DNA of 64,000 bases from Escherichia phage vB_EcoM_JQD51 (PV204681), one strand, 5' to 3'. Numbered from the stretch's first letter, positions 30,440 through 37,655 are shown. Translations and numbers: made by a program. Notes: a model not told the origin generated them from the sequence alone.

Positions 30440-33400
30440 ATGGCTACATTAAAACAGATACAATTTAAAAGAAGCAAAGTAGCAGGAGTTAATCCTACTG
30501 CAGCACAATTAGCCGAAGGCGAATTAGCGATAAACTTAAAAGATCGAACTCTTTTTACTAAAGATGACCTCGGTAATATTATTAGCCTAGGCTTTGCTAA
30601 GGGCGGGGATATTAACGGTAATGTAACTCAAAATGGAGATTATTTACAGAACGGTACATATAATCTCAATGGAAACCAGTTTGTTTATGCAGGAAAATAT
30701 ATTGAATTTTTACCTAAAACTGCAGGCAATGGTGCTTGGGCTAACCAACATTTGAATAAAGCCCCTATCTTTACAGATTTAAGTTCAACTACTTCTGTTT
30801 CAGAATACCATCCGCTGATTAAACAACGCTATAAAGATGGAACTTTTTCTGCTGGTACATTAGTAAACGAAGGTAGTTTTAAATTCCATTATATTGATGA
30901 AACCGGGACTTCAAAATACTGGACTTTTAATCGAAACGGTAATTTTCAAGTTGATTCCGGAAGTTTATTAGTATCTAATGGATATTTAGTTACTCAAAGT
31001 AATATTGAAACTAAAGCTGGTTCTTTAATTGGTCCTAAAGTTATTACCAAAAATATCAATGTGAGCACTAAATCTTGGGACACTAATATTGATACTGCAT
31101 ATGATTTAGTTTCATTACCGACTTGGCAGTATACTCCAACCGAAACGGATTTGGATACTAATGGTATAAACTACCTTCGTAAATTCCGCGGACATGTTTC
31201 TTCTGCTATTTTCCATGAAGTTGCTGATGCTCGTTCAGGTAAACCACAGAATATTTCGTATTGGACGGGGCGTAATGCTGAAGTTTATCAATGGTCTTAT
31301 ACCACAGATGGGCGTATGTCTGTTGCTAATTCGATAGGTATAGGTCTTGCTGATGTTGGTGACCAAGGACGTTATCCATTGGTTTCGTTTGGTAAAGGTA
31401 TTGCAATTGGTGACAATGATACTGGTATTAAATGGGTTCGTGACGGGGTTATCGATTTAGTTGCGAATGGTATTTCTGCCGGCACTATTCTTAATAACGG
31501 TATTAACAGTACTAAAAAATTGATGGTTGGTTATAGTCGAGATTCTGGTTCTACTTGGGATTACCCAAATAACAACCAAGCAATGTTTACTGCGCGTACC
31601 GATGTTGATGGTAATAATAACGGTGACGGTCAGACTCATATCGGTTATAACAGTAATTCTAAAATGTATCACTATTTCCGTGGTACAGGTCGTATGGCTG
31701 TTGGTATGTCCCAAGGTCTCCTTGTTGAACCAGGAATTTTAGATATTAGCACTGGTTCAAATACATTAAGTTTGCGTGCTGACGGTACTGTTGCTTCTGT
31801 TCAAACGTTAAAGCTTAATAATGGATTATATTTTAATGGTGATGGAACTAATGCTTCTTTAGTTTTTAAAGCAGCTTCAGGTATTGATGGCACTAAGCAA
31901 ATTATGTGGGAAGGTGGTAAGCGTGCTGGTCAAAATAAAAGTTATGTGACAGCTAAAGCTTGGGGTAATTCATTTAACGCATCTGGCGATCGTAATCGTG
32001 AAACAGTTTTTGAAGTAGCTGACGGACAAGGTTATTATTTTTATGCGCAGCGTGTAGCTCCCGCTTCAGGATCTACTGTCGGACCAATTCAATTTAGAAT
32101 TGCTGGAGCATTATTAACCGGTGGTGGTATTACATCATCCGGCTCGATTGTTACGGAATCAAGTTTAGTTGCTAATAATGGAATGTCAGTAAATGGACAA
32201 GCTAAATTCGGTGGAACAGCTGATGCATTAAGAATTTGGAATGCCGAATATGGTGCTATTTTCCGTCGCTCAGAAGCAGCATTACATATTATCCCGACTC
32301 CTAAAGATGCTGGTGAAAGTGGTGGAATAAGTAATCTCCGCCCACTTAGTATTAGCCTTAATAATGGTATGGTGCAAATGCGTCATTCCGTCACGTTAGG
32401 TGATGATGGGTTAGGCGGCAATATGGTTACTGTTGATAATGATAGTAAACTTGTTGTTGTTACTAGTAATAGTCGCATTTCTCCTAATTATAATATGCAA
32501 TTAGGGCAAAACGCTTATATAGATATTCAGGCTTCTGACGGCGTTCGTCCAGCAGGGTGTGGTTCATTTGCATCTCAGAATGACGTAAACGTCAGAGCTC
32601 CGATTTATATGAATATAGAGCGTACTGCTACTTCTGAATATATTCCTATTGTTAAACAGCGTTATGTGCAAGGTGATAGCACTTATTCTATTGGGACATT
32701 AATTAATCAAGGAGATTTCCGTGTCCATTATCACCAGGGTACTAGTACTACCGGCACCGATTTAAGCTGGGAATTCCGTCGTAATGGTGATTTCCGCGCT
32801 AGTGGTAAAATTATTGCTGGTGCTGCTACTCTTGGTCATGATGGTAATATCACTGGTGGTTCTGGTAATTTTGCTAACTTAAACAGTACAATTGAATCAC
32901 TTAAAACTGATATTGTTTCAAGTTATCCTATTGGAGCTCCGATTCCTTGGCCTACTGATACACCTCCTGAAGGTTATGCCATAATGGAAGGTCAAACATT
33001 TGATGCTGGCTTGTATCCTAAGTTAGCTGCTGTGTATCCTTCAGGCACTCTGCCTGATATGCGTGGACAAACTATCAAGGGTAAACCATCTGGGCGTGCT
33101 GTATTAAGTACAGAAGAAGACGGTGTTAAGTCACATAGCCATAGTGCAAGTGCATCAAGCACAGATTTAGGTACTAAGACCACTTCTAGTTTTGATTACG
33201 GTAGCAAAACGACTTCAAGCTTTGATTATGGTACTAAGACCAGTAATAATACTGGTGCTCATACGCATAGTTTGAGCGGTTCCACAAACACCGCCGGTGC
33301 GCACAGCCACACAAGCGCTCTTTATGCGGGAAGTAACAACTCTCCTGGTACTGGTTCTATAAGAGGATCCGCCGGTGGTGGTAATACGCTTGGAACTTCT

Positions 33401-33625
33401 TCTTCTGGGGCACATTCGCACTCTATATCTGGTACTGCTGCAAGCGCAGGCGCTCACGCACATACTGTTGGTATTGGTGCTCATACCCATACAGTTGGTA
33501 TTGGTGCTCACACCCATTCAGTAGCAATTGGTTCACATGGGCATACAATAACTGTAAATAGTACAGGTAATACAGAAAACACGGTTAAAAACATTGCTTT
33601 TAACTATATCGTTCGTTTAGCATAA
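30440..33625 (+). CDS. 37: gp37 long tail fibre distal subunit (receptor-binding tip)
   Basis: 1061-aa ORF; C-terminal His-rich GxHxH repeat region (GAHTHSLSG...GAHSH...[33 protein letters not shown]) typical of T4-type gp37 tips. Confidence 0.9.
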
Positions 33626-33628
33626 GGA

Positions 33629-33646
33629 GAGGGGCTTCGGCCCCTT
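33629..33646 (+). terminator. UUCG-tetraloop hairpin between 37 and 38 (weak U-tract; possible attenuator or RNA stabiliser)
   Basis: GAGGGGC-ttcg-GCCCCTT inverted repeat. Confidence 0.45.
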
Positions 33647-33652
33647 CTAAAT

Positions 33653-34204
33653 ATGAAAATATATCATTATTATTTTGACACTAAAGAATTTTACAAAGAA
33701 GAAAATTACAAACCGGTTAAAGGTCTTGGTCTTCCCGCTCATTCAACAATTAAAAAACCTTTAGACCCTAAAGAAGGCTATGCTGTTGTATTTGATGAAC
33801 GCGAACAAGAATGGGTATATGTTGAAGACCATCGTGGAAAAACAGTATGGACTTATGATAAGCAAAAAATTGTTATTGACACCCCAGGTGCTCTTCAAAA
33901 TGTTACTACAGAAGAACCTGGTGAATTTGACATTTGGACCGACGACGGGTGGAAGGAAGATGAAGCATATAAACGCGTAGTTCAACGTGATAAGAAAATT
34001 CATGAACTCTATAAATTATTCAGTGTTTTAAGTTCTCTTATTGACGCAGAGGTTGCTAATAGAGAAGAAAAACGAAAATTTAAAGAGCTCAAAAAATTCT
34101 TTGCCCTTTTAGAAAAACATGAACATCTTGGCGGTGAATTCCCTAAATTCCCTGACCTTGAAAACAAATCTATTATCAAAGCGATTATAAATATCTTTAA
34201 GTAA
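33653..34204 (+). CDS. 38: gp38 tail-fibre assembly chaperone (T4 type)
   Basis: 183-aa ORF (T4 gp38 183 aa); N-terminal MKIYHYYFDTKEFYKEENYKPVKGLGLPAHSTIKKP as remembered for T4. Confidence 0.88.
   Translation: MKIYHYYFDTKEFYKEENYKPVKGLGLPAHSTIKKPLDPKEGYAVVFDEREQEWVYVEDHRGKTVWTYDKQKIVIDTPGALQNVTTEEPGEFDIWTDDGWKEDEAYKRVVQRDKKIHELYKLFSVLSSLIDAEVANREEKRKFKELKKFFALLEKHEHLGGEFPKFPDLENKSIIKAIINIFK
34186..34193 (+). promoter_or_regulatory. Late promoter TATAAATA for holin gene t (inside 3' end of gene 38)
   Basis: Exact TATAAATA 20 nt upstream of t ATG. Confidence 0.6.
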
Positions 34205-34213
34205 GGAGGTATT

Positions 34214-34873
34214 ATGGCGACACCAAAAGTATCATTTTCACTTAGTGATATTCTATTTGGGTTGCTAGATCGTATTTTCAAAGATAACGCTACTGGAAAG
34301 GTTTTAATGTCCCGAGTAGCGGTAATTATTCTTTTGTTCCTAATGGCACTAATATGGTACAAAGGAAGTATTTTGCTGGATTATTACGTAAGAGCTAAGT
34401 ATGATACTTATACTGAAATAATCCAAAAAGAACGAGCTTTACGTTTTGAATCTGCGGCTCTAGAACAACTGCAAATAGTTCATATCTCATCTGGTGCAGA
34501 TTTTAGTGCTGTGTATTCTTTCAGACCTAAAAACTTAAATTATTTTGTCGACCTTATAGCTTATGAAGGCAAACTACCTAGCACAATTTCTGAAAAGTCC
34601 CTTGGCGGATTCCCGGTGGATAAAACGGCCAATGAATATATAATTCATTTAAGTGGCCGTCATTTCTCATCTAAATCAGAATTTGCATTTTTGCCTACAA
34701 AATCTAAGACTGCCGAACTTTCTTATATGTATAGTTGTCCATACTTTAATTTGGATAACATCTATGCCGGAACTGTGACGATGTATTGGTATAAGGGGAG
34801 TAATATACTTGAGGAGGATCGCTTAGCGGCTATATGCAACCAAGCGGTCCGAATACTAGGAAGGGCCAAATAA
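34214..34873 (+). CDS. t: Holin T
   Basis: 219-aa ORF (T4 T 218 aa); N-terminal TM segment and large periplasmic domain; collinear. Confidence 0.92.
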   Translation: MATPKVSFSLSDILFGLLDRIFKDNATGKVLMSRVAVIILLFLMALIWYKGSILLDYYVRAKYDTYTEIIQKERALRFESAALEQLQIVHISSGADFSAVYSFRPKNLNYFVDLIAYEGKLPSTISEKSLGGFPVDKTANEYIIHLSGRHFSSKSEFAFLPTKSKTAELSYMYSCPYFNLDNIYAGTVTMYWYKGSNILEEDRLAAICNQAVRILGRAK

Positions 34874-35146
34874 TTAGTTGTTAGAATACATCGCTAAATG
34901 ACGATAAATATTTTCAAAACCTTCGTTGAATTCACTAATCAGTGTTTTCTTTTCTTCGGCAGTTAAATTTGTAATTAGTTTTCTGAACGAATTCTGATTT
35001 AGCTGCCGACCATCTTTTTTAATTCCAATCTCATTCAAGAATCCGATGAAACTTGCTCGGTCTTCAACAATATCTTCCCTAGAGAATTTAATCAAAATAG
35101 AAGCAATAGTAATAATTTCACGTACGATTTCAATGTCTTTATTCAT
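34874..35146 (-). CDS. asiA: Anti-sigma70 factor AsiA
   Basis: 90-aa ORF (T4 AsiA 90 aa), collinear; convergent with t, stop codons abut. Confidence 0.88.
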   Translation of the reverse strand: MNKDIEIVREIITIASILIKFSREDIVEDRASFIGFLNEIGIKKDGRQLNQNSFRKLITNLTAEEKKTLISEFNEGFENIYRHLAMYSNN

Positions 35147-35192
35147 AACGTTTTATTCATTCCACTTAATTGATAAGAGTATAGTACCATTA

Positions 35193-35408
35193 TCAGTGTT
35201 GATTGTAAATGGCTTTTTCTACGCTTTTAACGTAATTGGTGTAGTCTTCCTGTTCGTACGAGTGTAAGGCCAAGAACGGAACTAATAGTTCATTATAGAC
35301 TAAAGCCTCACGCTCACGTTCGGCCTCTACTACGTTCTGAAGATTATGACTCATATCGTTCCTTATAACTATCAATATAGTCCTGTATGTCGAAGAACGA
35401 CATTTCAT
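35193..35408 (-). CDS. Hypothetical small protein
   Basis: 71-aa ORF; start uncertain, overlaps neighbour. Confidence 0.3.
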   Translation of the reverse strand: MKCRSSTYRTILIVIRNDMSHNLQNVVEAEREREALVYNELLVPFLALHSYEQEDYTNYVKSVEKAIYNQH

Positions 35409-35643
35409 ATTCTAGGGCATTAAGAGCCCGTTCTTCAGTATAGTCAGAACCAAAGACGATAGTGATTTCGCCAGGCTTCATGTGATTGAAATCAACACTA
35501 AAAGGAATACGAGAACATACTTCGTCTGCCATATCTGCAACAACACTACGATATACTTCTAGGTTAACCTGATAAAGCTCTGCAAGTTCTTCGCATCGAA
35601 TAACAAGTTCAGTTGCAGGATTTTCTTTGATTTTAGTAAGCAT
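35344..35643 (-). CDS. Acidic hypothetical protein (possible Arn-like DNA mimic, by position only)
   Basis: 99-aa Asp/Glu-rich ORF near asiA. Confidence 0.35.
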   Translation of the reverse strand: MLTKIKENPATELVIRCEELAELYQVNLEVYRSVVADMADEVCSRIPFSVDFNHMKPGEITIVFGSDYTEERALNALEYEMSFFDIQDYIDSYKERYES

Positions 35644-35717
35644 AGTCTTTACCCTTATGTTTTTGTTTACGTTTAGATTGAAGTTCTGATTTCTTCTTGT
35701 CCTTATGAACAGAAGCC

Positions 35718-35945
35718 TTATTGAAATCGTGTTTTGCTACAAGATTGTTCATAATGCTTTATAACCTCGTTTAAACATTTATCGGTAAAAGAAAACTTTT
35801 TAGCCACAGAACATTCGATAATGTGCTCTTTCAAATCTTTAGAGTCAGTGTATCCCATCTCAGTAATAAAGTGGCGAATTAAAGCTTTATTCTTATCATT
35901 AACAGAATTAAAATAATCTGCTTTAGAATCAATTATTCTCATCAT
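35718..35945 (-). CDS. Hypothetical protein
   Basis: 75-aa ORF. Confidence 0.4.
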   Translation of the reverse strand: MMRIIDSKADYFNSVNDKNKALIRHFITEMGYTDSKDLKEHIIECSVAKKFSFTDKCLNEVIKHYEQSCSKTRFQ

Positions 35946-36210
35946 CTAATTTCCTTAATTGATATTGCAACGAGCTAATAATTTCTTCGTTCATTTTAAT
36001 ATACATGTCACGCAAGAAAGGTTTTAACCCATCACGAATAATTGCTAATGTATCACCTTTACATAAATTAACCAAATAAGGATGGTCTAAAGCGTCCCAA
36101 CCAGGCTGATTAGCATACATACCATAGTTTTCTTCCATCATATGATTAAGACGTTTGATATCTTGGATACGTGATTCAATAGCATCTTTCTGGAGTTGTT
36201 TAATATTCAT
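35929..36210 (-). CDS. Hypothetical protein
   Basis: 93-aa ORF. Confidence 0.4.
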   Translation of the reverse strand: MNIKQLQKDAIESRIQDIKRLNHMMEENYGMYANQPGWDALDHPYLVNLCKGDTLAIIRDGLKPFLRDMYIKMNEEIISSLQYQLRKLDDENN

Positions 36211-36671
36211 TAATAAAGGTCCTCTGAATAAAGTTCTTTCTCACTTCCGCCACGTTCAATACGTACCTGTCCAGCATACGTTGCAATAATCATTGCTTCT
36301 TCACGAGTCCAGTAATTAGAGTATTGGTCGATAAAGCCTTGGTCGTCACCACAAACTTGTTGCGAGACTAATTGAGGACCAACTATATCAAGTACTTCAG
36401 CCATATCTTTAGAGTAATGACGAACTCCAGGAATAACCAGAGTTCCACCACTCTTCAATTTAAACCTATTAGCTGCACATACTATAACACGTTGAACTTT
36501 TTGGTCATTATTCCAATAGCACGTTTGCCAACAGATTTCAGGAACTTCATTCATTATATCATCAGCAGAATAATTATAACCGTAGGACTGGAATTTTTCT
36601 GCTAGACTTTCAGGGGTCTCACGAGACAAGGCCAAATCTAATAGCTCTAAACGTTCTTTAAATGATTTCAT
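36210..36671 (-). CDS. Hypothetical protein
   Basis: 153-aa ORF, start/stop-coupled to neighbours. Confidence 0.45.
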
Positions 36672-37012
36672 TTAAACCATTCCTTAATACGTTGCCAAAT
36701 AGATTTTTGTGCTTGTTTATTTACACCAATCGAACGAATAACCGGTTGTGACTGCTGATATTCTTTATAATCTTCTTTATAGATTTCGTAAGCTGCATCA
36801 ACAAATGAACTGATCGCTGCCATAAAGTTTTTACGTATACCGCCAGGAGCTACTCCATTAGGGAATTCAGAATTTTCGCGAATAATTAAATATAACCCAG
36901 CTTTAATCTTTACAATTGTCCCTAAATAAGCCCCGTGGTACCAAATATCCCATCCTTCCTGAGTAGGTTCTGCACATTTACGAAGTTCGTTAATAATATT
37001 CAGCTTATTCAT
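36668..37012 (-). CDS. Hypothetical protein
   Basis: 114-aa ORF directly downstream of motA. Confidence 0.45.
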
Positions 37013-37022
37013 TATGTATTCC

Positions 37023-37655
37023 TCACAGTACGTTAGTTACAAGGGTAATGATTTCTTTGGACACATTAGGGAAGTCAATGTAAGTATATTTACCACCGAT
37101 CTTAATCTTAACATCGTTTTCAAGAGAAGTAAACAGTTTTGATTCAGTTTCTGACATGTTGTATGCAAATATTCTAAGACAACCATCTCGACGAATTTCG
37201 ATCTGACGAATACCTAGAACTCGTTTTGCAAATCGAACTTCCAAGTTACTACGGTTTTCACCAATTTCTTTAACTTCAACTTTGTCTTTAATATTTTCAA
37301 AAACAAAGTTTGCTAATTCATGCATTTCAGGAGTAACTCCACGTGCTTTTCTAGTGTTACGTTTCTGAAGAAGTTCTGGAGCATTTTCTTGGGCAAAGAG
37401 GTCTGCAGCTTTTTGGATAATATCCATTGCTTCGCCTGTTGCTATAAGTCCATCACCAGATTTTTCGACTAAACCTTTCTTAATCAATACACCAATGTTA
37501 GAGTTAACAACCGATGCATTGTATTCCGCTTCCAGAGCTTCACGGACATTGGCAGCAGTGGTGAAGTTGTTCTTAATGATATAAACCATTATTGCAGCAG
37601 TTTTTTCATTCAGAGCATTTTCAGAAGCTTTGATGATGTAAGTAACTTTAGACAT
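37023..37655 (-). CDS. motA: MotA middle-transcription activator
   Basis: 210-aa ORF (T4 MotA 211 aa) upstream of 52-region terminator. Confidence 0.8.
   Translation of the reverse strand: MSKVTYIIKASENALNEKTAAIMVYIIKNNFTTAANVREALEAEYNASVVNSNIGVLIKKGLVEKSGDGLIATGEAMDIIQKAADLFAQENAPELLQKRNTRKARGVTPEMHELANFVFENIKDKVEVKEIGENRSNLEVRFAKRVLGIRQIEIRRDGCLRIFAYNMSETESKLFTSLENDVKIKIGGKYTYIDFPNVSKEIITLVTNVL

Follow-up and report, generated by a model that had tools for sequence, protein, structure and literature searches.

The window analyzed here, a 64,000-nt stretch of the genome of Escherichia phage vB_EcoM_JQD51 (PV204681), contains a junction at which two genes of opposite orientation meet stop codon to stop codon. 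On the plus strand, t (34214–34873) encodes a 219-aa product that is 75% identical to the T protein of T4 and whose residues 6 to 218 match the Pfam profile Phage_holin_T (PF11031; E = 1.1e-90, 303.6 bits against a cut-off of 22.2). On the minus strand, asiA (34874–35146) encodes a 90-aa product that matches the AsiA profile (PF09010; E = 2.4e-32, 111.4 bits against a cut-off of 25) and is annotated as an anti-sigma factor in the records of near-identical phages. Judged by these matches, the t product can be assigned as the T holin (a full-length profile match above the gathering score) and the asiA product as a member of the AsiA anti-sigma-70 family (above the gathering score, at ~90 aa). 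The TAA of t (34871–34873) is followed directly by that of asiA (34874–34876, TTA when read on the plus strand), leaving 0 bases between the two genes: positions 34860 to 34880 of the plus strand read gaagggccaaaTAATTAgttg, and the wider surroundings at ~34.9 kb read ...ggccaaaTAATTAgttgtt.... The abutting stops form a palindrome, TAATTA (34871–34876), that is identical in T4; we rejected it as a motif in its own right, because it is the automatic product of two adjoining TAA stops. Over this stretch, the junction is 99.9% identical to Escherichia phage F2 and 98 to 99% identical to many Mosigvirus-type phages.

The two genes close two opposed gene blocks: on the plus strand g34-g35-g36-g37-g38-t, and facing it on the minus strand asiA, small open reading frames (ORFs), motA, and additional early genes. 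No other convergent junction occurs within ~20 kb in either direction. An exact match to the T4-type late promoter motif (TATAAATA, 34186–34193, plus strand) lies 21 nt upstream of the t start codon, and the record of phage SA79RD annotates a late promoter at the homologous site. Upstream of asiA, a consensus scan places a sigma-70 early-type promoter, TTTACA-17-(TG)TACTAT (35181–35209, minus strand), whose elements (G)TTTACA and TG-n-TAyTAT are conserved in T4, S16, and Mineola. In T4, asiA is an early gene and t a late one, transcribed from promoters of different temporal classes (early sigma-70 and late gp55/gp33, respectively); with early promoters on one side and late promoters on the other, the RNAs of t and asiA should therefore coexist little.

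Beside asiA, two small minus-strand ORFs (35193–35408 and 35344–35643) have no Pfam match; the one that adjoins asiA is annotated as 162 nt (35193–35354) in related phage records, and its 3′ end overlaps the asiA early promoter. At the other end of the neighborhood, the distal tail-fiber protein gp37 (30440–33625, plus strand) carries His-rich repeats (GAHSHT, GAHTHT, and others) and measures 1061 aa. Its counterpart in phage F2, elsewhere 99.9% identical, has 1204 aa (3615 nt), which makes the receptor-binding region a mosaic when compared with this nearest relative.

Abutment of t and asiA is an ordinary, already known arrangement. In the annotation of T4 (NC_000866), t (160221..160877) and asiA (complement of 160878..161150) meet with zero gap at the same TAA|TTA, and the genes, their orientation, and their neighbors (g37 and g38 on one side; asiA.1, arn, and motA on the other) are those of the window. 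We surveyed the gap between the two genes in ~60 T4-like loci, which comprise annotated phage records and 53 loci recovered from viral contigs by T-holin alignment (the identities of the phage 133, Acj9, and Merlin loci being established by BLAST). The gap mostly falls between −8 and +8 and takes the values −8, −4, 0, +3, and +8 by lineage: it is −8 in Acinetobacter phage 133; −4, with TTAA, TTAG, or CTAG overlaps, in Gaprivervirus, Citrobacter phage Merlin, and others; 0 in Tequatrovirus, Mosigvirus, Marfavirus, Jiaodavirus, and Acinetobacter phage Acj9; +3 in Salmonella phage S16; and +8 in a group of three loci (L022, L026, and L034). Being recurrent, the tight junction is more than chance, with the exact gap drifting, and its recurrence across lineages marks the tight convergent boundary as an old, inherited trait of T4-like phages. 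In two loci from viral contigs (L056 and L062), the t reading frame stops prematurely or out of frame, through what may be a frameshift, a sequencing error, or a pseudogene; the apparent “gap” of L056 contains the usual coding sequence for the C-terminus of T.

Candidate intrinsic terminators were scored by d, which combines a hairpin and a U-tract (after the d'Aubenton-Carafa formula; calibrators score +11 to +28). No canonical intrinsic terminator was found within 200 nt past either stop (best d = −25 on the plus strand and −47 on the minus strand), and no site anywhere in 33.6 to 36.7 kb had d > 0 by this hairpin and U-tract score. A consensus promoter and terminator scan of positions 33000 to 37500 likewise left the junction without a terminator, with counts not above those in shuffled sequence. 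An Rfam search of positions 33500 to 35700 at a permissive E-value returned no family, only two sub-threshold chance matches, one of which merely reflects a long plus-strand hairpin described below. The top plus-strand score in the 33.6- to 36.7-kb region belongs to a perfect GGGGC-UUCG-GCCCC tetraloop hairpin (33631–33644, plus strand; d = −9, no real U-run) in the 27-nt spacer between g37, which ends at 33625, and g38, which starts at 33653; such a hairpin is typical of the intercistronic CUUCGG hairpins of T4.

On these points the initial annotation of this DNA was accurate: it gave the identities and convergent orientation of the two genes, which the ORFs and Pfam matches bear out; it placed their stops next to each other on opposite strands, as the sequence reads; and it saw no terminator between them, in agreement with both the consensus scan and the hairpin and U-tract score. 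It went on to propose reciprocal read-through, of late transcripts into asiA and of early transcripts into t. With no intergenic DNA, a transcript that covers either stop must indeed enter the partner gene, and some 3′ overlap is unavoidable; but the stable hairpins just inside both partner genes, seemingly kept by selection, had gone unnoticed, and so had the fact that abutment is the annotated state of T4 and most of its relatives.

The first of these hairpins lies in the RNA that would be made by read-through from asiA. It is a minus-strand stem-loop (34816–34850) positioned 24 nt past the asiA stop, inside t codons ~201 to 212 (RLAAICNQAV), with the sequence GGA.CGCUUGGU.GC-AUAUA-GC.GCUAAGCG.UCC. 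Its predicted dG is −18.3, the fold takes up 79% of the ensemble, and it is more stable than its dinucleotide shuffles (z = −3.3). Its tail, UCCUCAAGUAUAUUA (UCCUCAAG...), is not U-rich (T = 1.26, d = −47), although one record (OL960576) annotates the element as a rho-independent terminator on the basis of prediction software. Homologous hairpins embedded in t are present in T4 (at the same place in the 3′ end of the gene), S16, Merlin, 133, Acj9, and SQ17. Farther into t, a second minus-strand hairpin (34626–34659; inverted repeat I2), followed by UUUUAUCC, has dG −12.3, T = 3.45, and d = −19; by these scores it would be the best terminator-like site for asiA read-through in the lineage of the window, still short of canonical. 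Inside the t genes of S16 (L008) and ECML-359 (L007), canonical minus-strand terminators made of a hairpin and U7 occur ~130 to 140 nt beyond the asiA stop (GCAGCTGAACATATATGTGAAGCTGC+TTTTTTTCTTTG, with d = +26.6, is one example), with the U-run drawn from the conserved Lys-Lys-Lys codons of T (LPTKKK); the lineage of the window has K-S-K at this site and no such terminator.

How far the protein alone accounts for the structure in t was assessed by permuting synonymous codons within the gene, which keeps both the protein and its codon usage, and refolding 66-nt windows. As minus-strand RNA, the last 66 nt of t beat their synonymous recodings in 9 of 16 tight lineages (z from −1.75 to −3.7; window, −2.4; T4, −3.0; Merlin, −2.6; 133, −3.0; Acj9, −3.1; L047, −3.7), versus none of the seven lineages that have a wider spacer with its own hairpin or terminator (z from −1.1 to +2.5). 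Elsewhere along t, only 8% of windows reach z ≤ −2. The contrasts between tight and spaced lineages and between terminal and other windows are both marginal (Mann-Whitney p about 0.05), and the lineages are related rather than independent. In the other seven tight lineages, among them Marfavirus, Jiaodavirus, and a CC31-like group, there is no excess in the terminal t window; some of them show an excess one or two windows further in, which carries the caveat that multiple windows were considered.

Sequence details of the embedded stem bear on both its strand and its maintenance. In phages 133 and Acj9 and in locus L047, the counterpart within t is a complete terminator by the canonical score, GCGGCTTG...CAAGCCGC followed by T5-7 (d = +36, +17, and +20, respectively), with Lys codons providing the U-run. 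Because of G-U pairs, the hairpin is more stable on the minus strand than on the plus strand in both T4 (−17.5 versus −12.4) and Merlin (−21.7 versus −10.2). The stem is kept by synonymous changes, with CGCTT/AAGCG in the window and CCGCCT/AGGCGG in T4. In the Mosigvirus SQ17 (85% identical), the changes TTA>TTG and GCG GCT>GCT GCA create a 12-bp stem followed by the U-rich UUCUUCAUUU, and this stem again stands out on the minus strand (z = −2.5) more than on the plus strand (z = −1.1). Several such details suggest that it is the minus-strand RNA in which the stem functions. Over 33 distinct t 3′ ends, pairing is most frequent in two neighboring registers, offset by a single base (65% and 58% of cells, versus 27 to 38% in other slid registers). 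Covariation measured over the same 33 ends against a single consensus structure is modest (2 to 4 pairs with double changes) and confounded by coding constraints. Use of the two registers in different lineages weakens this test, and the conserved R-L...Q-A codons are partly self-complementary; the protein thus imposes some of the pairing, and modest covariation is to be expected. The case for the stem was therefore based on the synonymous-codon shuffles.

A second structured region of t lies near the 5′ end of the gene (34288–34321, ~nt 75 to 108 of the coding sequence), where most T4-like lineages have z of −3 to −4.5 against synonymous recodings and the lineage of the window only −1.9. It is also present in the T4, S16, Merlin, Marfavirus, Jiaodavirus, Roskildevirus, and L059 loci. 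In the window, the hairpin at this site (CGCTACTGGAAAGG...CCCGAGTAGCG, dG about −11.5) spans the conserved A26-T-G...S33-R-V-A, and the record of Klebsiella phage Mineola annotates a “terminator” at the same spot.

The other side of the junction has a comparable element. Read-through RNA from t would contain, 83 nt past the t stop and inside asiA, a long plus-strand stem-loop (34956–35009) of 54 nt with a 14-bp outer stem (dG −22.2; z = −3.35 versus dinucleotide shuffles and −3.1 versus synonymous recodings of asiA), followed by a U6 run that a 5-nt spacer, CCAUC, separates from the stem. It is preceded by a weak 4-bp hairpin, CACTAATCAGTG, and a U-rich run, TTTTCTTTTCTTCGG (34933–34959, plus strand; d = −24.9, dG −1.1), at the position homologous to a terminator for late transcripts that T4 carries inside asiA. 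The T4 element (CCCTCGTTGAATTCGTCGATGAGGG+TTTTCTTATCTT, 47 nt past the t stop) is a canonical hairpin with a U-run (d = +12 on the canonical score) and, with its extended 14-bp stem, has dG −20.3 and z = −4.2. The two junctions thus differ on this side: the copy in the window is degenerate, and a different, longer stem-loop sits 20 nt beyond the position of the T4 terminator. Across lineages, the plus-strand RNA antisense to the 3′ third of asiA is more stable than its recodings (T4, z = −4.6; S16, −4.3; 133, −5.9; L047, −5.4; window, −3.1), often with a stronger excess on the antisense than on the sense strand; in the three lineages with intergenic hairpins that were tested at this place, z is no lower than −1.6. 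The long stem-loop is invariant in sequence among the Mosigvirus records compared (SA79RD, SQ17, and LF82-1), which leaves no variation for a covariation test. Another 4-bp hairpin, in the C-terminal codons of asiA (YRHLAM, ~34891–34907), was rejected (z = 0.1 versus recodings in the lineage of the window); a hairpin in these codons is strong in S16 and the Gaprivervirus group.

In all surveyed lineages whose spacer is wider, the t stop is followed directly by a hairpin or a terminator. The Winklervirus spacer contains an 18-nt perfect hairpin (AGGAGAC-TTCG-GTCTCCT), that of L019 has GGGAGAC-TTCG-GTCTCCC, and that of Roskildevirus has GGGCC-GTAA-GGCCC followed by TTTATCATTT and an extra small ORF. 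In the L053 group, GGGAACC..GGTTCCC-TTTTTT comes after t, and in L027 and L058 to L061 strong hairpins are followed by U-runs. Those spacer elements that end in a U-run reach d = +11 to +28, against −18 for the bare tetraloop hairpin of Winklervirus. These intergenic elements resemble the embedded hairpins of the window in their place along the gene order, right behind the t and asiA stops, and in the presumed role of ending the convergent transcripts; they differ in lying in spacers of 17 to 26 nt or longer and in having UUCG or GNRA-type loops and U-runs, whereas the window has no spacer and its stems are embedded in coding sequence without a U-tract. In two loci (L010 and L023; Erwinia phage IT22, Roskildevirus), 191 nt separate t from asiA and the spacer holds an additional 44-codon ORF on the asiA strand plus a terminator hairpin right after t; the junction can therefore accept insertions.

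The reading that we favor, with moderate confidence, is a compacted convergent boundary at which signals for RNA 3′ ends are embedded in coding sequence. The late tail-fiber and lysis unit (g34 to g38 and t) here meets the early asiA-motA unit at an ordinary boundary conserved in T4-like phages, with the intergenic DNA compacted to none. The 3′-end signals, which are intergenic in more distant relatives, would have shifted into the partner's coding sequence. The stem-loop in the last ~60 nt of t (34816–34850) would act on the minus-strand RNA of asiA, and that in the last third of asiA (34956–35009), preceded by the degenerate copy of the T4 terminator (34933–34959), on the plus-strand RNA of t. 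Each of these stem-loops is stable and G+C-rich, as expected of a canonical terminator (z about −3.3), and neither has the U-rich tract 0 to 2 nt after the stem that such a terminator also has. Intrinsic termination may thus be weak or absent in the lineage of the window (minus strand, d = −47; plus strand, a 5-nt spacer before U6), and the stems, lacking a proper U-tract, would most probably serve as pause sites, leaky terminators, or barriers to 3′ exonucleases, with Rho completing termination on the untranslated read-through RNA. Since their counterparts in other lineages have canonical terminator scores, read-through probably extends no more than tens of nucleotides in the case of asiA RNA and about 140 nt in that of t RNA. 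The asiA RNA would then extend ~60 nt into t and the t RNA about 135 to 140 nt into asiA, for an overlap of at most ~190 nt (34816–35009).

Compared with convergent gene pairs in E. coli, for which overlapping bidirectional terminators have been described (Ju et al. 2019, as relayed in a bioRxiv preprint, 10.1101/2022.10.23.513370), the junction has the corresponding geometry and hairpins, and would have the transcript overlap. The two systems have in common a convergent pair, an expected 3′ overlap, and noncanonical stem-loops in the overlap zone. They differ in that the early and late promoters of the phage make head-on traffic doubtful and in that the window has two hairpins inside the coding sequences of the partners, not one shared element.

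A first alternative, which we hold possible but clearly less probable than embedded 3′-end signals, is that termination is driven by Rho or by head-on collision of RNA polymerases, the hairpins being only pausing or positioning elements. Hairpins without U-tracts, as found in the lineage of the window, would suit such a scheme, and in the collision model noncanonical hairpins in the overlap are what position the termination site (bioRxiv 10.1101/2022.10.23.513370). Collision, however, requires simultaneous convergent transcription, and early and late promoters act largely in sequence. As for Rho, the asiA read-through RNA would be untranslated and is moderately C-rich and G-poor, its first ~120 nt having a rut-like C/G ratio of 1.6 to 2.1; but this bias of C over G is modest and brief and does not decide for Rho. 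Against factor and collision alike stand the plain intrinsic terminators found at the same embedded sites in other lineages.

Pure genome compaction is a somewhat more doubtful account: abutment would be neutral, arising from deletion bias, the hairpins would be by-products of the encoded proteins, and transcription would run on to Rho or to a distant site. Variation of the gap from −8 to +8 among genera does imply that exact abutment is unconstrained, and this account can also draw on the lack of a canonical terminator within 200 nt in the lineage of the window, on the several tight lineages without excess structure at the t 3′ end, and on the R-L and Q-A codons, which pair partly by necessity. 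It fits poorly with natural sequences that beat synonymous recodings specifically at the ends of both genes, in the lineages that lack an intergenic hairpin, and with the clear terminators of hairpin and U-run at the same embedded sites in T4, 133, Acj9, and L047; strand-specific G-U pairs and synonymous compensatory changes further argue against chance.

The initial annotation had also suggested a built-in antisense interaction tying the anti-sigma-70 factor to the lysis timer, and this idea finds no support here: the two genes differ in temporal class, and lineages that separate them keep both. As a functional cis-antisense device, in which pairing of t and asiA RNAs would lead to RNase III cleavage or interference and so couple anti-sigma expression to lysis timing, the junction strikes us as improbable. 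Such a device could build on a 3′ overlap that zero gap makes physically inevitable, on embedded hairpins that preserve rather than prevent an overlap of roughly 60 to 190 nt, and on a convergence kept from E. coli phages to Acinetobacter phages, but inheritance explains the conserved synteny equally well. Early asiA and late t would leave little coexistence of the two RNAs, and the Winklervirus, Roskildevirus, L027, L053, and L059 groups retain both genes with terminators, an additional ORF, or a few hundred bases between them, so the overlap is dispensable. For T4, RNA made in the early period and complementary to late messages (“anti-late RNA”) was already reported in the 1970s, and read-through of this general kind would therefore not be a new idea. 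A full-text search of the literature found no published 3′-end map or antisense study of the t/asiA junction; for T4, both the RNA and the protein of AsiA can be detected as early as the first time points (PMC9697503). Least plausible of all is the specific scheme in which the hairpins fix a ~190-nt overlap (34816–35009), t read-through forms duplexes with residual asiA mRNA, and RNase III thereby helps to shut off asiA and trims the t mRNA 3′ end, tuning holin dosage and lysis timing. If true, it would connect the transcription take-over module of T4-like phages to their lysis clock through a conserved interaction at the RNA level, and any regulatory role of the overlap would tie the control of middle-mode transcription to the timing of lysis; our analysis lends this no support.

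As found, the abutment matters little, being the T4 gene arrangement over again in a Mosigvirus-type genome. What the comparison adds is a small and apparently undescribed refinement: where the spacer between t and asiA has been lost, hairpins or terminators are embedded in the coding end of the partner gene. Under the favored reading of embedded 3′-end signals, this would be useful in annotating transcription units and in recoding or engineering t, asiA, and the tail-fiber region in therapeutic T4-like phages, since RNA 3′ ends may change when t codons ~200 to 212 or the last third of asiA are altered synonymously. It would also mean that T4-like phages have repeatedly exchanged an intergenic terminator for stem-loops, which in some lineages are complete terminators, encoded at synonymous sites near the 3′ end of the partner gene.
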